A stretch of 64,000 bases of DNA from a virus (UHGV-0076294); one strand, 5' to 3'. Shown: positions 32,957-58,110, counted from the stretch's first letter. Program-made: numbers and translations. The notes: generated from the letters alone by a model not told the origin.

Positions 32957-33502
32957 ATGAAACAAATACAGTTAACTGATCACGTTAATGCGTTTAAACA
33001 CTTTCTGGATAACGCGGGTATAAAACCTGGCGAACAGACAGACGCATGGACTGCACGTGTTTACGGAAGTATTGGCAAAGTCTGTGAGTCCACGACAACA
33101 CAGGACGGGTTGTTTGTTGCTAAAGCAGTAGGTATTGCCTTGTGGGATATTGCTGCTTTGGTTTACGTGATGAATAACGGGGATTTACGTCCCCTTGAAA
33201 AATCTTTACACCGACTACTGGCCATTAAGAAATGGAAAAATGAACATCCTGAGTCAATCGCGATTACGTTGATGCCAGAAGCGGTACTTGCTATCAAAGC
33301 GGTACGCAGTTGTACCGCCCGTGCACAAATGGAGCGTCGGTTACATCTCACGACGCTCTTTTATCAATTGGCCAGAATTGTAAAGATGAACGGCCTAATC
33401 TTCGACCGGGTTCTACAGAACGGACGTATAAGTTGGACAGAAGAACTAAGTAGTTCTCCGTTCTATACAAAACTGAAGCTTAAAGATATTTTGAAGGATT
33501 AA
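32957..33502 (+). CDS. hypothetical protein
   Basis: 181-aa ORF; RBS region ATCGGAAATG. Confidence 0.5.
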   Translation: MKQIQLTDHVNAFKHFLDNAGIKPGEQTDAWTARVYGSIGKVCESTTTQDGLFVAKAVGIALWDIAALVYVMNNGDLRPLEKSLHRLLAIKKWKNEHPESIAITLMPEAVLAIKAVRSCTARAQMERRLHLTTLFYQLARIVKMNGLIFDRVLQNGRISWTEELSSSPFYTKLKLKDILKD

Positions 33503-33503
33503 C

Positions 33504-33812
33504 ATGGAAAACTATTCGGGTTGGGCGATTTCGCAGTGCATTGGCTATTCTTTACGTTCTTTAGTGCGTACACTTTATAACAAAAACTCGGGTGAAGCTA
33601 TTACACCGCAGTTATTGGGCAAACTGGAAGTCGAAGTTAACTATAAACTAAAACAGTTACTCGACAACCACGTAAGAACAATGCGTTGGGAGTTCTTGCT
33701 ACGTGGTAAGAAGCCTTCAATTACCGTTGTAGCAGAAGGTAGTGAAATCGTACTGCAATCCAACGCAGACCTGTTTGAAATTTTAACTGAACTAGAAAAG
33801 GACAAAATCTAA
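33504..33812 (+). CDS. hypothetical protein
   Basis: 102-aa ORF; stop overlaps thyA start (TAATG). Confidence 0.5.
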
Positions 33813-34852
33813 TGAAACAGTATTTAGCGTTAATGCAAGACATTCTGGATAACGGCGTTGTCAAAAAAGACCGTACGGGCGTAGGGACACTTTCTGTATT
33901 TGGTCGCCAACTACGTTTTGACCTGAAAGAAGGTTTCCCATTAGTTACTACGAAAAAGGTTCACCTGAAAAGTATCATTCATGAACTGTTATGGTTCTTG
34001 AACGGTGACACTAACGTGAAGTACCTGCAAGAGAATGGGGTAAGAATCTGGAACGAGTGGGCGAATGAAGAAGGGGAATTAGGCCCTGTCTACGGACACC
34101 AGTGGCGAGAATGGATGGATACCAAACTGGTTTATCTTTGGGACGAGCGTAGCAAGGACGTATTGAGAAAACGAGGATATCGCTACGTTGGGACTATCGC
34201 AAAGGACGATCCTGAAGAAAGTATCGTTATTTATCGCAAATCTCACGACCAGATCAGCAAAGTTATCCAGCAACTTCGTGAAGACCCTGACTCCCGCCGT
34301 ATTATCGTTAGTGCCTGGAACGTAGCCGACCTAGACGATATGGCACTTAACCCATGTCACAACTATTTCCAATTCTACACAACGGAAATGACGTTGCCTG
34401 AACGACTGGATTGGTACGAAGTAAACGAACCGGAAAAATTTGCGAACGCACCACTTATTAATCACGAAGATATCGATAGCGAAGAACGACTTCACGAAAT
34501 TTTAGATCGTGAAGGTATCCCACGTCGTAAACTTTCGTGTTTTTACATGATGCGGAGCAACGATTACCTACTCGGCGCGCCGTTTAACGTCGCTTCTTAC
34601 GCGTTGTTAACCCACATGATTGCTCAACAACTCAATATGGTTCCAGACGAGTTAGTTTACAGTGGCGTGGACGTTCATCTGTACTCTAACCATCTGGAGC
34701 AGGCAAAACTTCAACTTACTCGCGAACCTTACCCGCTACCTAAACTGGTTATCAAACGTAAACCTGATTCTATCTTCGATTACAAATACGAAGACTTCGA
34801 ATTGGTTGGATATCAATCGCACGACACAATTAAAGCTCCCATAGCTGTCTAA
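33812..34852 (+). CDS. thyA: thymidylate synthase (ThyA family) with two internal insertions
   Basis: Near-identity to E. coli ThyA over conserved blocks (MKQYL..., DRTGTGT-like, [17 protein letters not shown], catalytic [29 protein letters not shown]); 346 aa versus ~264. Confidence 0.9.
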
Positions 34853-34859
34853 GGGGTAC

Positions 34860-35156
34860 ATGATGATTAATGAGAAATCGTACGCGGAGTTAACTTCTTT
34901 CGGTATTAGTCGATTAGCTGAACTAAAAACTATCACCGAGCGTGCCGGAATAGCATTGCAGGCCAAAGGTAAGTTTGATCAAGGCGATATCGAAATCTTA
35001 GAAAAGATTTCGGCAACGTTAAAAGACTTACGTGTATTGAATATTCTTGTTGGTAAATTGGGTGGCCTAAGTAACAAGAAATTGGCCGAAATACACGGAG
35101 TGACGCCAAGCCGAATATCTCAAATCATCAGCAAGGCCAAACGAGATTTTCAATAA
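34860..35156 (+). CDS. small DNA-binding protein with sigma-70 region-4-like HTH
   Basis: C-terminal LAEIHGVTPSRISQIISKAKRDF resembles sigma-70 region 4.2 helix-turn-helix; 98 aa. Confidence 0.5.
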   Translation: MMINEKSYAELTSFGISRLAELKTITERAGIALQAKGKFDQGDIEILEKISATLKDLRVLNILVGKLGGLSNKKLAEIHGVTPSRISQIISKAKRDFQ

Positions 35157-35190
35157 GGTTATTTCGCTTGTAGTTAAAAGGAACATTGAA

Positions 35191-35637
35191 ATGTCTAAAA
35201 CTCATGTTAACTATAACATCGTAGTAGAAGAATTATCAAAAGGTTTAACCGACCTGGATTCTAAAGATAACCCATTTACCGATCGTTATGGAGCCAAAGC
35301 TTTATCTGAGTTCCGTACTATCCGCTACGGTACAGGTAGACAGACAGGGCTTACAGACTTTGCTGTCGAGTTAGCTAAGAACCATAAAGGGAAGGTATTA
35401 TTCGTTAATCCAAAAGGGTTCTTAGAGGACGATGTGCTATTCCGTTTGGGTCTCGAAGACTTACCGGAGAATATCACCCAAATCATTGGTTACCAAATGG
35501 GTACAGAAAAAGAAAAATACAGCCTTGTTATTGTAGACAACGCTGGGGTTTTCTTTAGCATTTTCCGTTACATGAAGTTCTTTCGCTTACTGGCAAACTC
35601 AGTAACTAAAGACGTCGTAATACATTTAATGGGTTAA
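35191..35637 (+). CDS. hypothetical protein
   Basis: 148-aa ORF; RBS AAAGGAAC. Confidence 0.5.
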   Translation: MSKTHVNYNIVVEELSKGLTDLDSKDNPFTDRYGAKALSEFRTIRYGTGRQTGLTDFAVELAKNHKGKVLFVNPKGFLEDDVLFRLGLEDLPENITQIIGYQMGTEKEKYSLVIVDNAGVFFSIFRYMKFFRLLANSVTKDVVIHLMG

Positions 35638-35655
35638 TCAGTGGGGGTTAGTTCT

Positions 35656-35826
35656 ATGGAAGAATTAGAGGCGGTTCCCTGTTACATTCCTAGAAGAGGT
35701 GTTATAAAAGAATGTTTCATCGATCGTATTTTGATCTCTCGTATCAAGAAAGGTCCAAGAAAACATCAAACCAAGAAGGTATTTATTTATAAATACTTCG
35801 AAAAGATTCTATTCCAACCTTACTGA
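35656..35826 (+). CDS. small basic protein with KGPxK motif (repeat 1 of 3)
   Basis: 56 aa from ATG 35656 (ORF track begins at GTG 35641); IKKGPRKHQTKKVFIYKY. Confidence 0.3.
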   Translation: MEELEAVPCYIPRRGVIKECFIDRILISRIKKGPRKHQTKKVFIYKYFEKILFQPY

Positions 35827-35854
35827 CTAAATTAACTCAGGGAGTAAATTTGCT

Positions 35855-36052
35855 ATGTTAGACGATGTTCTTAATTTCACGATAATGTATTTCGAACCGA
35901 AGAAGTTCCGTACTATCGCCACACGTTACTGTAAAGGGCCGAACAAAGGACGTAAACGTTTCCAAGTAATTCAACTTGATTATTCCAAGTTCCTTGTAGC
36001 TAATCCATTCGAGCGGAAACCTAATGAAGAAACTGGATTTGGTCAAAATTGA
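35855..36052 (+). CDS. small basic protein with KGPxK motif (repeat 2 of 3)
   Basis: 65 aa; CKGPNKGRKRFQVIQLD; different frame from neighbours. Confidence 0.3.
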   Translation: MLDDVLNFTIMYFEPKKFRTIATRYCKGPNKGRKRFQVIQLDYSKFLVANPFERKPNEETGFGQN

Positions 36053-36432: not shown

Positions 36433-36453
36433 GTTAATCTAATGGAGTTTAAA

Positions 36454-37284
36454 ATGGGCGAACGTTTTGACATCAACGCTATCTACAACATCGTAGTTAA
36501 TCCTGGTCAACACCTGGAAGAAGTTAATGCACAACTGCGTGCTCTGAACGAGAAAGCGATTCAGTTTGATGCTATCTACACCATCGGCGTAAATCCTGGT
36601 ACTAACCGTGTTCGTGTAGAAGGTAAACGCCACACCGGTAATCAGGAACTGGACATTGAAACGATCGAAGCCCCGATTAAACTTACCGATGCCGAATATA
36701 ACGGTACAGTAATGCACACCGTATCGGTTCCGGTCTACTCTATCGAGAACTGTGTAGAACGTGTTAAAGGTTGGTCTAAAGAACGTGGTATTCTCGACAA
36801 CGGTAAACTGGAAACACAAATCACGAAGTTCTTTGAAGAGTTTGGTGAAATCGCAACAGGTATCAGCAAAAACAAACCTGAACTGATCATGGACGGTATC
36901 GGCGATGCGTTAGTGGTTCTGGTGAACATTCTGGAACTGGGTAAAGAATACCATGACGAATACTTAACAACGGCCGATATTATTAGTAGCGGTTTAACTA
37001 TGCAACTTCGTGATGTTGCAAATGTTGAAGCTTGTGCAAACGATCATAAATTCCCACATCGAAAATACCTGGAAGCAACTAATTCTTTTTCCACGTCTTT
37101 CTTAAATACTAACAAAGACGATAACCTGTTCGATCATGGTTTGTATTGCCTTGCTTGTCTCGCGCTGTATTACAAACTGGACATTCGCCATTGCTTCTCT
37201 TTAGCCTGGCACGAAATCAAAGACCGTAAAGGTTACCTGAACGCCGACGGCATCTTTGTAAAAGATGCAGACTTGGCGAAATAA
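36454..37284 (+). CDS. MazG-like nucleotide pyrophosphohydrolase domain protein, tentative
   Basis: Start set at ATG 36454, 6 nt after GGAG (ORF track 36442). C-terminal region ...FFEEFGEIATGI...MDGIGDALVVLVNILEL resembles the MazG EExGE / D-x-x-GD helices. Confidence 0.45.
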   Translation: MGERFDINAIYNIVVNPGQHLEEVNAQLRALNEKAIQFDAIYTIGVNPGTNRVRVEGKRHTGNQELDIETIEAPIKLTDAEYNGTVMHTVSVPVYSIENCVERVKGWSKERGILDNGKLETQITKFFEEFGEIATGISKNKPELIMDGIGDALVVLVNILELGKEYHDEYLTTADIISSGLTMQLRDVANVEACANDHKFPHRKYLEATNSFSTSFLNTNKDDNLFDHGLYCLACLALYYKLDIRHCFSLAWHEIKDRKGYLNADGIFVKDADLAK

Positions 37285-40174: not shown

Positions 40175-43100
40175 TTAACCCGCACGTCTAACGTTAAGCT
40201 GTCGTGCTGGCTGTTCAACGGACATTTGTCGTGATGCTGAGCCTGCTGGTGCCATAGGTTGGGTCGATACGGTGTTTTGTACCGGCTGCGGACGTTGTTT
40301 AAGAATCGTGACAATCTCTCTGAGATACCCCGCCGATTCTTTCGCAACAGCCAACTGCTGGACACTAATCGGATCACCGCTACTGAGTGTAGGCCCGTTT
40401 TGTGCATCAGAAGTAACCGCAGGTGCCGGTTTACTCGTTGCTGCTACGCGCTGCACAGCGCCTTCTTTCACCTTCTCGACATCTTCTTCAGGCAACCCTT
40501 CGTTTCTAGCTCCAGCCGCAACGGTCTCCGCAATCGTAGAGGCGTCGCCGCCAGCACTACTACCGCCAGGTGACGGTACTGCCGGACCACCACTGGTTGC
40601 AGCTTTGACATTGTCTGCACCCATCGCACCTTTCTCTGCTAACGCATCGTCACGACGCGCAGCATTCGATGCGGGCAAGTTATCCGTCGCTCCAGAAATT
40701 GATGGATCGTTAGCTGCTCCTGCTGCTACCGCTGGAGAGGAGGCAACCGCAGGCGTTAGCCCTTTCACCATGTCTTTCGTTGAAGCTGGGTTAGCCGCAA
40801 TTTCGTTTGTCGCCACAGCACCCATACGGCGGTTCAGTTCATTAATAACTTCGCCAACAGTACGAATACGAACAATCTGTTCGCCTCGCATTTCGTAGAA
40901 GACTCCCTTATTACCTCTAAGGATTTGAGGAGTAATACCTTCTGCTTTGTCGGCTGGCATGTTCGGATTCTGCCGCCATGCATTAAGGAACTTCTTACCA
41001 CCGCCTGGACCCAAGAAGTGATACAGATACGCAACAGCCGGGGGCGGTTCTACACCACCCAGGTCTTTCTGCGCCTGCATGATATTATCACGAATAAACT
41101 GTACCCCGAGGATGGTATTTGCCCACGGGTCATACTGGTTTACTTGCGGAATACCGTACCGACGAGAATACCCCTTCATCATTCCAGACCACGTACTGTC
41201 GATGAACTGGAACAACCCTGCTGCTGACGCACCTGGGTTCTTGACGCCGTATCTGAAACCAGATTCAGCTTTCGCCATCGCAATCGCAATCGCAGGCGGA
41301 ACACCTAAGGTATTTGCGACATCTGCAATCATTGCTTTAACGCCTTCTACGTTAGGTGTCTTACCACTACCCAGTTTACTGATTGGATATTTCTCAGCCA
41401 AGGTTTTGTAATCACCTTCTTTGACGTCCCCGAGTTTAATCCCGGATTGGCCCGTAGAGAACTTCGCGTAATTGCTGATCCCCATCTCACCCACAACTTG
41501 AGATAAGTCACCCGGTGTACCGTAAGACGACCCACCGTTTGGCAAGTACCCATCGTTAGACGCTGTACCCCAATCAACGACACCTTTAAAGCGTTCTTTG
41601 CCATCTTCGTCGGTTTGGTACATTCTCGTCGCACGATCGGCTTTCTGCCACTTCGCACGTTTACCTGCTGCGGGAGTAGAGCGCAGGGTGTTACGAACAG
41701 CCAGGTCAGGTTCTTTTGACAGTTCTTTCAGGTTGGCAAGTTCAGTAGCAACAGAACCTGCATCAGTGTTTGCTTCCTCGCCTAGCGGGTTGAATGGAAT
41801 CTCCCACACGGACTGTCGAATACCGCCCTTCATGTTGTAAGCGCCACGAATCATCAACGCCAATTCGTACATGAACCCACCGGATACTTTCAATTCGGTA
41901 GGGTCTGCTTGCGGAATGTAACGTTTCAGACCAACGACGTAGGTCATATACGCCGGTAAGAAACGGTTGTAGAACCAGTTCTTACAACGCTCCTCTTTAG
42001 GACCACCTATCAAGTCAGGCGAGATAACCGCAATGGCTTCTTTCCAGTTGCCTTTATAGGTACAGTTCTTCACATCAATGTCTTTCAACACGTTCTTCTC
42101 TAACAACGTGAAAAGATTACGCGTTGTTTGGTTGATAGTAACCGCACCGTAGGTTTTCCACCTGACCGATTCCAGGTCTTCCAAATCGCTTTTCTTCGGT
42201 AATGAATGCCAGTCAACTTGGATTTGAACCTGCTCAGTCCCGTCTTCCCATCCTTCAACCTTCGCAACTTTCTCGTTACGTTCAGCATCCGCATTCGCCA
42301 ATACCTGACTGGTTTCAGCAACGGACGCAATTTTGTGGCCTTCGACAGCGTCACGCATACCTGAACGTTGTTTCCGTTTGTCGTCAGTACGCATGTTGAT
42401 TGACCGCCACACACGTTCCTGTGCTTCGACAACCTCTTCCCCTGACAAGAACTCTGCCGGAGTAAAGGTAACGAAATCCCACGCTTTAGAGAACCAACCC
42501 TGGTTAACTTTACGCGGGTCAGTCAACGAACGGAATTCCGCAGAATCTTTACCCATCTTCATTTTGTTGTAGAGGGTAATCATATCCGCTTTCGACACTT
42601 TCTTCGGATCACCAACATCTGCCAAAGCGATATCGTTATCCATAGACTTCAGTGCTGAAATCCAACGGAGGTAAATCGGTGCGAAACGTTGTAGCATAAA
42701 CGCAGTAAATGCTAACATCTCACCACGTTCTTCCAAGTTTACACCAAACCCTTCTGCGAGTTTCTTCACGTCTTCGGAAGACAAGCCACGTAATTGTGCT
42801 TCACCCCCTTCGGTATACGAGACGTAAGGTTTCAAAGCGTCTTCTAAATAACGGGCTTTCATACCGTCTTCAGAAGACCACTGGTCGTAGTCACGGAAAC
42901 CGTATTGTGCCAGACGCATATAGTCGAGGTACTGCGCTTTCACACGGGTAGCGCATTTATACGCCCAATAACCCAGACCAGCGGCAGTCGCACCGATCAC
43001 AATTGCAGGCCAACCCACCGCAGCTACCACCGTAGATGCAGCTGAGGCTACCGCAGTCACCGCCGGAACCGCTAAACGCTGTACGGCAAACTTACCAACA

Positions 43101-46100
43101 TTCCACGCTGCTTTACCGATGAACCCGGTAGGTTTAAAAATACCCCACTTCGCAACTTTACCCAGTATGGAACCCACCGTACCTAAGATACTCACGATTG
43201 GTCCTACTAACGGTAGCCCTTTGAGGAAGTCCATCACCCCGCCTTTACGTCCTTTCTGTTCGGCGGATTTCTTGGCTTTCTCTTCTTCCTTAGAACGTCT
43301 ACGACGACGGAAGAATTGGAAGTAGTCGCGTTTTTCATCATTGGCTGCCGGTTTGTTACGTTGTCCGAACTTACTGAACATCGTACGAATCAAGCCATCA
43401 GGCGCACCAGCACGTTCCGCAGAGTCACGCATGGTGTTAAACCAGGACATTTCCTGGAGGTTAACCATCCGGTTCAAACGTTCCAGTAATGCTGAACCAA
43501 CACTCTTCGCTTTCTGCTTACCTTTGTTGATAACGCGCCCTGCGCTATCCGTTGCGGTTTCGAAATCCTCCTTCGCTGCGTTAATCACGCGTGTTGGAGA
43601 AACCTTACCACGGGCGTATAAGTGTTGGCGGTAAAACTCAGCAACGTCATCGTCACGACCTGCTAAACGAGACTCCGCCCGATAACGTGTACCGATATCG
43701 TAGCGTGGATCACGGAAGCTATCCACCGTTTCGCCAAAGCGTCCACGGAAACGGTCAAACCACCCTTTACCCGCAGCACCCCAACGAGACAGTCTATCGC
43801 CAACACCCTGACGGAAACGTGAGAATCGGTCACGTTGTCTGCCTCGCCAATCCCGGAAACTCTGGAAATAGTCTTTAAACCCATCGCGGAAATCCTTAAC
43901 GCGGTTAAGCATCCCTTTGATAGATTTCGACCCAACGTTTTTCTCCAGTTGCTCCGTCCAGGATTCATCTTCAGGCTCACCATCTAAACGACGGTTAAGG
44001 AGTTTATAGATACGAATCAGGATATGGTTGGTCTTACGGCCATTCGACCAGGAGAACATGCTGAAACCGCCACCAGAACCCCCGTCCTTACGATTCTGCC
44101 ACCACCGGGTAAGCGGGTTGTCGGTCGCTAACTCTTTGAATTTCTCAAAGCCACGTTTTGCATTGTTCCACAAACGAGCAGGCATTCCGGTTACACGGGA
44201 AATCATGCTTTGTAAACGTGTTTTCTCACTGCCTTCAGGAATCTCGTTAAGCCACTCACGTGCTTTCTCAAAGATAGACGCTGCTCTTGGTGAAATTAGA
44301 CCAATAAGTTTCTTCGGTAAGTTAACAGCTTTGTTTACCGCTGTACCTGCTTTACCGGAGATATACTGGAACAGGGCCTGGAGTTTACCGCCTTTATAGA
44401 AGCGCAGTTTACCCGCAGCCGCTAAGTCCGCCGCTGCGAGAATCAAGTTCCCGGCTTCGTCAACAATATCACGACCCAGCTTAATGTCGTCTAACGAGCG
44501 GAGTTGTACCAGTTTGTTGGTTTTAGGGTCAGCCTGATAATACTCACCTGCCTCTAAACGGTTTCCTTGTAAAACAACATTGCCTTTCTCGTCGTAGATG
44601 TCTCGAACACCAAGAACGCCTTTCCCGAACGCTACTGCTGAATTCCAGCCTGTGGACAGCGTACCAGTAACTAAACCTTTCAGTCGTTCAAAAACACCTG
44701 GACCGTCAGAAGACCCACCGGAGAACTTCCCACGGATAAAACTGCCCAGTGACTGTAAACGCCCTTTTCCTCTCAGGAACATGTTCTTCGCAAAACGACC
44801 AGCGCCCGTACCGGTGTCCCAAAGTACGCCCGCCCAACGACGGAACAGCCCGCTTTCACCAAGCACAATGCGCTTACGTTTGCGTTTGTTGCCGGTACTA
44901 CCCGCGTCTTCGGATGCGACACCCTCACCGTCACGACCACCACCTAAGCTTGCCAACAGAATACCTTCTTCATCCATGTTCTTGACATGTTTCAGAATTT
45001 CCTGCACGGTGTTGGATTCGGATTTGTTACGGATAGCATCAACGATTCTATCAAACTGTTGCTCTAAACCCGCATTAGTGTCAGGCCGTTCGCTTAACAG
45101 TTCAACAAAGTTGGTGGATTTTTCACCGTAGAGGACAGCAGCGAGTTGTCGTGCTGACAGCCCACGGCCACCACGTCCACCTTTACCTCTAACGGTGTCG
45201 ATAGTCGACTCATCACCGGTTACGGAAGCGTCTACACCTAAACGACGCAAATAGTCACCTAACGCAGAACCGTTTTTCAGTTTGCGCTGGATTTCTTGTT
45301 CACGCGTTAACGAACGACCAGAGCGAGTTTTCCCCATGGCCAGGTCGTTGTATAGCGTATACGGATCGTTAATGTCTTTATCTACATCAAACCGATCGTT
45401 CTTCGCATCGTACTTAAAGATACCTGCGTCACGTAACGCATTCTCACCGTAGATAATTGAAGCTTCGTCTACCGTGTTTTGACGTGCACGAATTGTTGAC
45501 TGAATAGCTGAAATCTTACCAGCAATCTCATTGCTAAGTTCATGATGCCCACCAACCAGTTCCGCAGAACGGGCTTCTAAGACCGCCTGAATCGCTTCTA
45601 CCGCGTTTGCATTCATGTAACGATACATGTGCATCGGGTCTTTCAGCAGACTGCCTACGTCGAATGCCTTACCTTCAGACGCACGGGATTCGATATAGTC
45701 CGCCAGCGCCTGGCGAGTTTTCGAATCCAGAGTTTTGTCTTTGTCGATAAAGTCAACGGTTTCGTTAATGTACTGCTGTAAACGTTTACGCTGTTCGTCA
45801 TTAGCAACTGCCTTACGTACGCGATTGCCAATAACTTTACGATCCACCATACCTCGCGTGGTCAGGTCATAAACCTGATCGTGGTGTTCGCCATATCCAC
45901 GACGAATAGATTTGTTAATCTCCGTCAGCAAGGTCGGGATGACTTCCGTGATGCTAAGATATGCTTTACGGTCGAACTTCGCTGCTGCTGATAACGCCTC
46001 TGCTGAACGTTCTTCTAAAGCTAATCCCTCACGACGCAGCGGTGTCACTAACCCCATCTCGTGCATTAAACGGAAGACAGTGGCCAATGGACCATCTATC

Positions 46101-47308
46101 TCACCAGCTATCGCTGAGTTAGAGATAGAAGATAAGTTACCGAACCCGTAGCGTGCCAACTGAAGCCGTTTCATGACTTCTGGGTTCTTTTCTAACTCAC
46201 TGCGTGTCCAGTTCTGTAAACGTTCTACTTGCGGTTGTAAGAATCGTTTTGCTAACCAACCACCGGCAAACCCTGCGACTTTACCTCGGCTATTCGTACG
46301 ACGACGTTCTGGCGACAGTGTAGAACTGTCTTCCATGTCGAAGTCGTCTTCCTGACCCATTGACAGAACTTGTTCTAATAACCCACGTCCGTCACTGAAG
46401 ATATTCGAAATCTTTTTCTTCGCGTTCTCACGGATTTGTTCAATGAACGAATCTGCGTAACGTAAGGGGTTCATCCATTCAGCGGCTTTACGTTTTACGT
46501 TAGCCCAACGAATTTCAGAGAATTCCTCTTTTGCATAATCCGGCAACGCGGTGTTTTTAACAATCGCTTCAAGTGCCGGAGTGTTACGGCTAAACTCGTC
46601 CTGTTTAAGTTTAGCAATATCTTGCAATGCGAATAACGTACGGTATTGCAGCTCTAGCTGTTTACGCTGAACGTTAAGCATCACCCCGCGACTTAAACTG
46701 GTCGTCAGGTTAACGTCTTTCGCAATACCGATAACCGTCTGGAACAGCGCATCGGACTTCATGTCCTTGATGGTGTCACGAAGACGGTCTTCTACCATTC
46801 CTTCCTGAACTTCACGTTGTTGTTCAGGTGTTTGTGGGGTACCTGCAAAAACAGTGTCTAACTCACGATCCATTAACGCTTGTTTAGGATCGTAATTCCC
46901 GTAATCGTACTGGTCGCTTTTCGCCCATTTATCGATCTTACGGGTTACGCTGTCAGGCAAATACCGTTTTAGGGTTGGGCCTAATTGACGAGCTTGTGCC
47001 TTCACCACGCGGGAGGTCTTTTCAATCTCGTCTTTCGTATGGGCCAGAATGTCTTGACCTGCGGCTTTGACGTTCTTATAACCTTCATAAGCGTCAGACG
47101 CCGGTTTTGGCATTCCTTTTAAAATGACCTGATCACGTTTATTTTCGGGCCAGATAGTCGACAATGCCGACTTACGGGCAGCACGAAATGTGTCCATGAC
47201 CGGGTTACGCGATTGGTCTTGTTGACGAGGGGGCTCATCAAAATCGTCCCAGTCGTCCATGTTATCAAGATCGATTTCATCGAAATCGTCTTTACCTTTT
47301 TTAGCCAT
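40175..47308 (-). CDS. giant protein (2377 aa) with lytic transglycosylase (SLT) domain and central TM helices; ejection or tape-measure-like candidate
   Basis: SLT motif AIAMAKAESGFRYGVKNPGASAAGLFQFIDSTW in C-terminal third; highly acidic N-terminus (DDFDEIDLDNMDDWDDFDE); central hydrophobic helices; Ala/Pro/Gly-rich C-terminus. Confidence 0.8.
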   Translation of the reverse strand: MAKKGKDDFDEIDLDNMDDWDDFDEPPRQQDQSRNPVMDTFRAARKSALSTIWPENKRDQVILKGMPKPASDAYEGYKNVKAAGQDILAHTKDEIEKTSRVVKAQARQLGPTLKRYLPDSVTRKIDKWAKSDQYDYGNYDPKQALMDRELDTVFAGTPQTPEQQREVQEGMVEDRLRDTIKDMKSDALFQTVIGIAKDVNLTTSLSRGVMLNVQRKQLELQYRTLFALQDIAKLKQDEFSRNTPALEAIVKNTALPDYAKEEFSEIRWANVKRKAAEWMNPLRYADSFIEQIRENAKKKISNIFSDGRGLLEQVLSMGQEDDFDMEDSSTLSPERRRTNSRGKVAGFAGGWLAKRFLQPQVERLQNWTRSELEKNPEVMKRLQLARYGFGNLSSISNSAIAGEIDGPLATVFRLMHEMGLVTPLRREGLALEERSAEALSAAAKFDRKAYLSITEVIPTLLTEINKSIRRGYGEHHDQVYDLTTRGMVDRKVIGNRVRKAVANDEQRKRLQQYINETVDFIDKDKTLDSKTRQALADYIESRASEGKAFDVGSLLKDPMHMYRYMNANAVEAIQAVLEARSAELVGGHHELSNEIAGKISAIQSTIRARQNTVDEASIIYGENALRDAGIFKYDAKNDRFDVDKDINDPYTLYNDLAMGKTRSGRSLTREQEIQRKLKNGSALGDYLRRLGVDASVTGDESTIDTVRGKGGRGGRGLSARQLAAVLYGEKSTNFVELLSERPDTNAGLEQQFDRIVDAIRNKSESNTVQEILKHVKNMDEEGILLASLGGGRDGEGVASEDAGSTGNKRKRKRIVLGESGLFRRWAGVLWDTGTGAGRFAKNMFLRGKGRLQSLGSFIRGKFSGGSSDGPGVFERLKGLVTGTLSTGWNSAVAFGKGVLGVRDIYDEKGNVVLQGNRLEAGEYYQADPKTNKLVQLRSLDDIKLGRDIVDEAGNLILAAADLAAAGKLRFYKGGKLQALFQYISGKAGTAVNKAVNLPKKLIGLISPRAASIFEKAREWLNEIPEGSEKTRLQSMISRVTGMPARLWNNAKRGFEKFKELATDNPLTRWWQNRKDGGSGGGFSMFSWSNGRKTNHILIRIYKLLNRRLDGEPEDESWTEQLEKNVGSKSIKGMLNRVKDFRDGFKDYFQSFRDWRGRQRDRFSRFRQGVGDRLSRWGAAGKGWFDRFRGRFGETVDSFRDPRYDIGTRYRAESRLAGRDDDVAEFYRQHLYARGKVSPTRVINAAKEDFETATDSAGRVINKGKQKAKSVGSALLERLNRMVNLQEMSWFNTMRDSAERAGAPDGLIRTMFSKFGQRNKPAANDEKRDYFQFFRRRRRSKEEEKAKKSAEQKGRKGGVMDFLKGLPLVGPIVSILGTVGSILGKVAKWGIFKPTGFIGKAAWNVGKFAVQRLAVPAVTAVASAASTVVAAVGWPAIVIGATAAGLGYWAYKCATRVKAQYLDYMRLAQYGFRDYDQWSSEDGMKARYLEDALKPYVSYTEGGEAQLRGLSSEDVKKLAEGFGVNLEERGEMLAFTAFMLQRFAPIYLRWISALKSMDNDIALADVGDPKKVSKADMITLYNKMKMGKDSAEFRSLTDPRKVNQGWFSKAWDFVTFTPAEFLSGEEVVEAQERVWRSINMRTDDKRKQRSGMRDAVEGHKIASVAETSQVLANADAERNEKVAKVEGWEDGTEQVQIQVDWHSLPKKSDLEDLESVRWKTYGAVTINQTTRNLFTLLEKNVLKDIDVKNCTYKGNWKEAIAVISPDLIGGPKEERCKNWFYNRFLPAYMTYVVGLKRYIPQADPTELKVSGGFMYELALMIRGAYNMKGGIRQSVWEIPFNPLGEEANTDAGSVATELANLKELSKEPDLAVRNTLRSTPAAGKRAKWQKADRATRMYQTDEDGKERFKGVVDWGTASNDGYLPNGGSSYGTPGDLSQVVGEMGISNYAKFSTGQSGIKLGDVKEGDYKTLAEKYPISKLGSGKTPNVEGVKAMIADVANTLGVPPAIAIAMAKAESGFRYGVKNPGASAAGLFQFIDSTWSGMMKGYSRRYGIPQVNQYDPWANTILGVQFIRDNIMQAQKDLGGVEPPPAVAYLYHFLGPGGGKKFLNAWRQNPNMPADKAEGITPQILRGNKGVFYEMRGEQIVRIRTVGEVINELNRRMGAVATNEIAANPASTKDMVKGLTPAVASSPAVAAGAANDPSISGATDNLPASNAARRDDALAEKGAMGADNVKAATSGGPAVPSPGGSSAGGDASTIAETVAAGARNEGLPEEDVEKVKEGAVQRVAATSKPAPAVTSDAQNGPTLSSGDPISVQQLAVAKESAGYLREIVTILKQRPQPVQNTVSTQPMAPAGSASRQMSVEQPARQLNVRRAG

Positions 47309-57558: not shown

Positions 57559-58110
57559 ATGTTTAATTTAGACAGCGACGGCGTTTTCGCAAACTGGCGT
57601 GGTTACGTTTTGGAACACCACCTTAAAGGAATGAGTATAGAAGAATTTCACGGAATGCCAGAGTTGCATCGTCGTGCTTTGATGCGGGAAATCTATTTAA
57701 ACGACCCGGATCTTTTTTATAAACTAGACCCGATACCCGAGGCCGTTAAAATCCTCGAAACAGTAGAAAGTCTGGGAGAATGTTGGGCGATTTTAACGTC
57801 AGGTTCAGAAGATCATTTCGACCACGACCGTGTTGTAGAAAGCAAAAAATTATTCTTCGAAAAACACTTCGGTGTCCCTGGCCATAAAGTCATCGTGACA
57901 ACTTCCTCTGCGGAGAAAGCGACCTACGCGGAGAAGGGAAGATTGTTGGTTGACGATTATGGTCGTAATTGCCGTGAGTGGGTGTTAAAGGGCGGGACCG
58001 CAATTTATACGCGGACGAACGAACCTGAAGTCGATGCGATTTGCCGACAAATCAGGACGTTTGCAGAAAGTCCCTTAGAATACTCAGGTCAAATTTTGTG
58101 CGTGCAGTAA
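57559..58110 (+). CDS. HAD-superfamily hydrolase, 5'(3')-deoxyribonucleotidase-like
   Basis: N-terminal MFNLDSDGVF (HAD motif I D-x-D-G-V) and later LVDDYG (motif IV-like); 183 aa. Confidence 0.6.
   Translation: MFNLDSDGVFANWRGYVLEHHLKGMSIEEFHGMPELHRRALMREIYLNDPDLFYKLDPIPEAVKILETVESLGECWAILTSGSEDHFDHDRVVESKKLFFEKHFGVPGHKVIVTTSSAEKATYAEKGRLLVDDYGRNCREWVLKGGTAIYTRTNEPEVDAICRQIRTFAESPLEYSGQILCVQ

Follow-up and report, generated by a model that had tools for sequence, protein, structure and literature searches.

The thyA gene at positions 33,812 to 34,852 of the viral sequence UHGV-0076294 encodes a thymidylate synthase (ThyA) of 346 aa, and it raises three questions: whether the gene was captured from an enterobacterial host, as the initial annotation had proposed, which reaction its product catalyzes, and what is added to the enzyme by two inserts that the 264-aa ThyA of E. 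coli lacks. The whole stretch of 64,000 nucleotides that was analysed is referred to here as the window. Judged from its sequence, the product is very probably a working folate-dependent thymidylate synthase of a phiKZ-related (SPN3US/Goslar-like) phage, belonging to a phage branch of ThyA, in which the inserts would be surface modules that leave the chemistry unchanged.

The presence of a 346-aa ThyA with two inserts at this position was confirmed by the ORF list and by alignment to E. coli ThyA. The ORF matches PF00303 over its full length (residues 2-346, profile positions 1-266, E = 1.7e-110, 368.8 bits at a cut-off of 24.3) and passes the NCBIfam equivalog cut-offs of NF002499 (409.6 bits vs 405) and NF002497 (396.8 bits vs 327). 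Its start codon overlaps the preceding stop codon, which suggests translational coupling. The positions of the individual parts are summarized in Table 1.

Table 1. Parts of the thyA locus in the window. Ec, E. coli ThyA numbering.
Feature	Position	Strand	Contents or basis
thyA ORF	33812..34852	+	ATG start, 346 aa plus stop codon; ORF list
RBS-like site AAGGA	33798-33802	+	sequence; nine bases 5' of ATG
thyA ATG	33812-33814	+	overlaps TAA stop of upstream ORF (TAATG)
Core block N, aa 1-101 = Ec 1-101	33812..34114	+	R21, E58, W80, W83, V93, Y94
Insert 1, aa 102-145	34115..34246	+	alignments, AlphaFold model, anchor conservation, two alleles
Core block M, aa 146-189 = Ec 110-153	34247..34378	+	R162, R163 (Ec R126, R127), L179 (Ec L143), C182, H183
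Catalytic C182 codon	34355-34357	+	core block M
Insert 2, aa 190-240	34379..34531	+	alignments, AlphaFold model, anchor conservation
Core block C, aa 241-346 = Ec 159-264	34532..34849	+	R248, S249, D251, N259, H289, Y291, tail IKAPIAV
N259 codon	34586-34588	+	core block C

In a global alignment with E. coli ThyA, the window enzyme gains a net 36 aa in the interval from Ec W101 to D110 and a net 46 aa in that from Ec Y153 to L159; together these gains account for the whole length excess (346 - 264 = 82). The insert segments as delimited in Table 1 comprise 44 residues (insert 1) and 51 residues (insert 2), compared with these net gains of 36 and 46. The two inserts were given as "about 35 aa each" in the initial annotation, which does not fit these sizes, and the second starts directly after FQFY instead of after FQFYTTEM. 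A phmmer comparison with PDB chains returned the matching blocks 1-102 = Ec 1-102, 145-191 = Ec 109-155 and 239-346 = Ec 157-264. The identity of the core to E. coli ThyA is 64.8% when all 264 aligned positions are counted and 67.3% when the junctions are left out, so that the earlier description of the conserved blocks as near-identical (65-67% in fact) was overstated. Anchor residues are D103, K105, G122, Y123 and R142-K143 in insert 1 (with a family consensus of R/K at 143) and E197, R198, P237 and R239 in insert 2.

The window contains split multisubunit RNA polymerase beta genes (phrog_2986, phrog_3148) together with tail sheath, SbcC-like and UvsX-like genes, which identifies it as part of a phiKZ-related jumbo phage. 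The best named relatives of its ThyA are found in SPN3US, Goslar and Erwinia jumbo phages, and the protein aligns in a single piece over its full length, at 60-64% identity, with the enzymes of SPN3US-like phages, Goslar, Erskinevirus, Machinavirus and Wellingtonvirus. A megablast search of positions 33000-36000 against GenBank phages gave no match. Proteins 87-99% identical to the window enzyme are encoded on contigs of 220-226 kb in many assemblies labelled Salmonella, E. coli or Shigella, and two complete relatives have been deposited as circular "plasmids", namely NZ_CP173450.1 (221,873 bp, E. coli 98232) and NZ_CP134650.1 (222,441 bp, Enterobacter ludwigii). That Seoul-like and Goslar-like jumbo phages persist in assemblies of isolates is already on record (bioRxiv 10.1101/2024.12.31.630880; PMC12768965), and the relatives found here agree with these published persistent virulent jumbo phages.

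Several features of the surroundings are recorded here in their own right. Upstream of thyA, the ORFs at 32957-33502 and 33504-33812 lie in different frames (TAACATG junction) and match positions 31-163 and 201-298, respectively, of the 299-position profile phrog_10269. The split is kept in both "plasmid" relatives, SPN3US has a single gene of 290 aa, and the pair could represent a stable gene split or a programmed frameshift. Directly downstream of thyA, a 98-aa ORF (34860-35156) with weak helix-turn-helix matches is absent from both "plasmid" relatives, which in its place have an additional ORF of 321 nt separating thyA from the upstream gene; the surroundings of thyA are a hot spot of gain and loss of small genes. 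Farther downstream, the minus-strand ORF at 40175-47308 encodes 2377 aa; the corresponding protein of the E. coli "plasmid" relative carries the annotation transglycosylase SLT domain-containing protein, and the product is probably a giant virion- or tail-associated lysin.

Regarding the reaction, the catalytic and binding residues are all conserved (in E. coli numbering R21, E58, W80, W83, Y94, R126, R127, C146, H147, R166, S167, D169, N177, H207 and Y209), and C182, R21, R162, R163, R248 and S249 are invariant in an alignment of jumbo-phage and E. coli ThyA. The PCH cysteine (C182) and the specificity Asn in [13 protein letters not shown] (N259) were correctly recognized in the initial annotation; the latter, which corresponds to the uracil-specifying Ec N177, lies in the motif PFNVASY. 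The signature of the hydride-transfer (methylase) step, W80, W83, L143, V93, Y94 and D169 plus the C-terminal tail, which seals the site, is present in full; this signature and the role of the tail are taken from PMC6400193.

The window enzyme and all of its 120 close relatives have PCHNY and MRSND where ThyA usually has PCHAF and YQRS[AC]D, so that the changes next to the active site relative to E. coli ThyA are A148N, F149Y, Q165M and C168N; the SPN3US-type enzymes keep YQRSAD, in contrast to the Met165/Asn168 variant of the window. Because these motifs resemble those of T4 gp42, the possibility was examined that the window enzyme is a dUMP hydroxymethylase, or an enzyme of relaxed pyrimidine specificity, that feeds DNA modification. 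T4 gp42, the dCMP hydroxymethylase (PDB 1B5E, 6A9A), belongs to the same superfamily and shares with the window enzyme the MRSND strand and an Asn that follows the catalytic Cys-His/Thr pair, as verified in the PDB sequence. A gene for an NT5C 5'-nucleotidase and the MazG-like genes on the flanks of thyA also speak for this reading. In ThyA, Gln165 helps to orient Asn177, and the window enzyme has Met at this position. Against these points stand the determinants of the T4 enzyme (PMC6400193), in which the C-terminal tail is missing and W83, L143, V93 and N177 of the E. coli enzyme are replaced by V85, D145, S94 and D179: the window enzyme retains W83, L143, V93 and N177 as well as the tail IKAPIAV. 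Furthermore, it passes the NCBIfam equivalog threshold, and about 25 of the 89 full-length clusters have Met or Leu at Ec 165 and, with one or two exceptions, keep W83, L143 and N177. The 222-kb relative NZ_CP173450.1 encodes a dihydrofolate reductase (DHFR), which supports the methylase because only the methylating reaction requires DHFR; neither a second ThyA nor a ThyX is annotated in this complete relative. A hydroxymethylase identity was rejected on these grounds, and the broader reading is very unlikely. The question of hydroxymethylase versus methylase activity, raised in the initial annotation together with a preference for a dUMP-methylating enzyme, is thereby answered at the sequence level in favor of that preference, every determinant from PMC6400193 being in the thymidylate synthase state. 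The window ThyA is concluded to be a dTMP-forming methylase (dUMP + methylene-THF -> dTMP + DHF), as predicted from these residues, and Q165M possibly entails some loosening of pyrimidine specificity.

Other genes of nucleotide metabolism were observed as well. A MazG-like nucleotide pyrophosphohydrolase of 280 aa (phrog_7855, E = 6e-73) is encoded near thyA at 36442-37284, and an NT5C-type 5'-nucleotidase is annotated in the relative, whose counterpart in the window is predicted to fall around 57559-58110. Together with ThyA and DHFR these genes suggest that the phage controls the dNTP pool.

Regarding the distribution of the inserts, both sites are filled in all six jumbo-phage enzymes that were aligned with E. 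coli ThyA, and homologous inserts are present at both sites in SPN3US, Goslar, Asesino, phiEaH2, Parshik, pEa_SNUABM_11 and phiKZ. SPN3US gp229, Goslar gp141, Asesino gp251, phiKZ gp235 and the thymidylate synthase of 201phi2-1 resemble the window enzyme in both sites and in the anchor motifs, whereas the insert surfaces differ largely in sequence; between named phages the inserts are 10-53% identical, the cores 69-89%. The alignment of phiKZ gp235 (488 aa) covers 97% of the segment that bears the inserts. The phiKZ protein is longer than the window enzyme, as is (by its length of 457 aa) that of 201phi2-1, and in phiKZ a further large insert, the third, occupies Ec 83-90. With residues 96-245 as the query, a representative library of 1.84 billion proteins yielded 477 matches at E <= 1e-10. 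Relative to E. coli ThyA, dozens of clusters at 50% identity are longer by 28-41 residues at site 1 and by 35-70 at site 2, and many are also extended at the N-terminus or carry a third insert at Ec 83-90. Every pattern of occupancy of the three insert sites was seen among 89 full-length cluster representatives, 20 of which have sites 1 and 2 occupied as in the window.

The inserts of this clade follow a common frame. Insert 1 reads W-x-D-[TV]-[KR]-[IVL]-V ... G-[YFW] ... [KR]-x-[IH]-DQ (in the window WMDTKLV...RGY...RKSHDQ), with anchor frequencies of 55-94% in 89 sequences. Insert 2 reads FQFY-T-x-E-[LM]-[ST]-x-x-ER ... [VI]-P-x-R-x-LSC (in the window [13 protein letters not shown]...IPRRKLSC), with E197 conserved at 87%, R198 at 82%, P237 at 94% and R239 at 85% in 95 sequences. 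Across both inserts, G122, E197, R198, P237 and R239 are conserved at 82-94% (approximately 90 sequences), whereas the positions in between are close to random. A few clusters (P0153, P0154, P0158, P0179 and P0180) carry 160-270 residues at the insert-1 site, with common motifs such as ...YGG.G..V...W.CF.NF..., and these stretches may be an in-frame nuclease-like or DNA-binding domain.

A back-translated signature of insert 2 was found in 82 viral contigs of IMG/VR, many of them 215-435 kb long. In the GTDB genomes of 185,579 bacterial and archaeal species (one genome per species) the same signature occurred in four stretches, all of them MAG contigs, in a scan for this single motif (plus PCH codons) that could miss divergent inserts or enzymes with insert 1 only. 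Three of the four contigs measure 2.5-8.4 kb, and the neighbours on the one long contig match phage-only PHROGs. The scan indicates that ordinary bacterial thyA genes lack insert 2; the check for such inserts in ordinary bacterial ThyA, which had been proposed at the outset, thus came out on the side of a phage feature. The suggestion that the inserts are phage-specific accordingly holds as far as their absence from the ordinary bacterial genomes scanned is concerned, but they are no special feature of this phage, being the hallmark of a large clade of phage ThyA. The window enzyme is a member of this clade, which has already been sequenced and annotated, and the sequences available so far suggest that insert-bearing ThyA is a large branch seen almost only in phages. 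No description of the inserts was found in the literature searched (gp235; phiKZ and insert; Chimalliviridae core genome).

A recent capture of thyA from an enterobacterial host, followed by the gain of phage-specific inserts, has to be measured against this distribution. With NF002499 as its best model, the core corresponds to the short ThyA type of E. coli (264 aa), the best PDB match is the E. coli enzyme, and the cores of the enterobacterial jumbo phages are strikingly similar to E. coli ThyA (67-80% identity, close to their mutual similarity). The core of the window enzyme is nevertheless nearer to those of SPN3US and Goslar (74%) than to that of E. coli (67%). The phiKZ core is 53-59% identical to the cores of the window, SPN3US, Goslar and E. 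coli. At the nucleotide level, the chromosomal thyA of E. coli shows 68-71% identity over only 41-45% of the gene, and the GC content of thyA (44.4%) equals the phage background (45.8% in the window). Homologous inserts occur in phages that infect Pseudomonas, Erwinia, Salmonella and Escherichia; because they are common to phages of Pseudomonas and Erwinia, the gene is old within phages in this form. The acquisition from an enterobacterial host that the initial annotation had considered probable is therefore unsupported as a recent event, and shared inserts, core identities, GC content and nucleotide identity largely refute such an event, so that it must be regarded as very improbable. An old proteobacterial origin appears likely from the sequences.

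An AlphaFold2 model of the monomer (alignment of 32 sequences) has a mean pLDDT of 93.1 and a pTM of 0.91, with values mostly above 90 in the inserts. The predicted fold is canonical. Insert 1 is predicted to form a strand (101-108), a helix (112-120) and two further strands (124-129 and 138-145), which would make it a unit of about 44 residues, strand-helix-strand-strand, that lengthens the hairpin at Ec 101-110. Insert 2 is predicted to consist of three helices (195-205, 207-212 and 224-233) and would be a unit of about 50 residues at Ec 153-159, where the beta-hairpin that begins with the catalytic Cys has its tip. Its confidence is lower only around 211-220, a region in which relatives show a 5-aa indel (218-222).

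When the model was compared with the PDB by Foldseek, the best matches were chains of E. coli thymidylate synthase, with a TM-score of 0.97 normalised to the target and 0.74 normalised to the query; the enzyme of E. faecalis reached 0.73, and no solved thymidylate synthase among the PDB matches spanned the inserts. The E. coli enzyme (PDB 2TSC, 1AOB) accordingly has the same fold, catalytic residues and C-terminal tail as that of the window but lacks both modules. Among the predicted viral structures of BFVD, the best match was the thymidylate synthase of 201phi2-1 (query-normalised TM-score 0.92, rmsd 2.3 Å, inserts included), which indicates that the inserts are structurally conserved in a classical phiKZ-like phage.

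From the ThyA topology, rather than from coordinates, we infer that the strand leading to site 2 begins at the catalytic Cys, that the returning strand has Arg166 at its end, and that the helix after site 1 heads back towards Arg126 and Arg127. Both insert sites should accordingly be found where the central sheet ends, on the side opposite the two active sites; by the same reasoning, the distal ends of the two subunits should be on the same side of the dimer. Such a position would leave the chemistry unchanged while adding a new outer surface. Comparable surface insertions that enlarge the fold without a change of chemistry occur in ThyA of the L. casei/Enterococcus type and in eukaryotic thymidylate synthases; that of L. 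casei, a small-domain insert of about 50 aa, is located at Ec 83-90, a site different from both inserts of the window.

The inserts are in-frame protein under purifying selection in close relatives. Their dN/dS values (Nei-Gojobori, against loci L030 and L097) lie at 0.07-0.08 in insert 1 and at 0.07-0.15 in insert 2; the core has 0.08-0.12. Within the family of 87-99% identical proteins, 75% of the columns are variable in insert 1 and 59% in insert 2, as opposed to 24-35% in the core. Insert 1 exists in two discrete alleles that are about 40% identical to each other, the second of which resembles the Goslar insert. In a sliding comparison with the copy on the E. coli "plasmid", DNA identity falls to 40-58% only at nucleotides ~34080-34230 against a background of 91-100%, whereas in the comparison with the Enterobacter copy the divergent block comprises insert 2 and the C-terminal part instead (34365-34720). 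These sharp identity boundaries show thyA to be a recombination mosaic within one phage population, in which the inserts move as cassettes, and the swapping may be driven by selection or may equally be plain recombination via the conserved flanks.

thyA is a classic home of introns, which raises the question of whether the extra segments are mini-inteins or unspliced introns that are absent from the mature enzyme. The homologue of Joad/RisingSun appears to be interrupted beside a GIY-YIG endonuclease gene, and the 160-270 residues at site 1 in the few clusters mentioned above could be read in the same sense. An intein, however, would comprise at least about 130 aa with splice-junction nucleophiles, and an intron would be a structured RNA interrupting the frame; neither an intein nor a group I intron is recognizable by these features in either insert. 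The segments of 44 and 51 residues are far below intein size and contain no stop codons, no Rfam family, group I introns included, matched in the thyA region at E <= 1, and purifying selection acts on segments that fold confidently on the core in the model. An intron or intein origin was rejected, above all on account of the purifying selection and the Rfam result, and retains next to no probability. In Joad itself (L008, 388-2130) the thyA frame ends after LSCQLYQR and is followed by the GIY-YIG homing endonuclease gene; like T4 td, thyA of Joad/RisingSun probably contains an intron or is split.

The best-supported reading, given the model, is that the inserts would be structured surface modules that do not alter catalysis. 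In the phage branch, extra folded modules would occupy as many as three permissive sites on the surface of the canonical 264-aa fold; according to the alignments, near-invariant anchors hold the inserts around fast-changing positions. Most likely the new surface would serve as an additional contact within the dimer or as a docking site for other nucleotide-synthesis proteins of the phage, and a docking or dimer-contact role can reasonably be inferred. A serious rival, albeit one to which we give well under even odds, is that the inserts are tolerated decorations without a specific role, i.e., folded extensions at permissive loops that are kept since their disruption destabilises the enzyme. 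This would fit the low identity of the inserts between phages whose cores are well conserved, the location of in-frame indels in insert loops, and the occurrence of every combination of the three sites among the full-length clusters, although this last observation is compatible with decoration and specific function alike. phiKZ gp235 is moreover listed as non-core, and the effect of its knock-down is weak (PMC12571901). On the other hand, both inserts have been kept from phiKZ and 201phi2-1 to the enterobacterial phages with anchors conserved at 80-94%, their dN/dS is as low as that of the core, and a burden of about 250 nt is retained across a very diverse clade. Human thymidylate synthase presumably has a short insert at the loop of insert 1, which would suit tolerated decoration and specific function equally.

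Surface modules that leave catalysis unchanged could also have a more specific task. Both inserts might form a phage-only platform on the dimer face opposite the active sites, which either docks to phage nucleotide-synthesis proteins or cellular structures or enforces self-only dimerisation versus the host ThyA; this we consider unlikely. If it were true, selection on that interaction, e.g., escape from a host factor able to recognise the phage enzyme, would account for the fast-changing insert surfaces and for the exchange of cassettes between co-circulating phages. A fusion of thymidylate synthase with GFP was excluded from the nucleus of PhiPA3.

As an annotation, thyA of the window is a routine thymidylate synthase and gives no case of a fresh host-to-phage transfer. 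The modest interest lies at the level of the clade, a large and apparently phage-restricted branch of ThyA, itself among the best-studied enzymes, with two or three conserved extra modules that fall outside all solved structures. In metagenomes, the anchor motifs can be used as a simple sequence marker of this phage lineage. Should the modules bind partners or restrict dimerisation to the phage enzyme itself, they would offer a handle on how the supply of dNTPs is organised in the cytoplasm of nucleus-forming phages.
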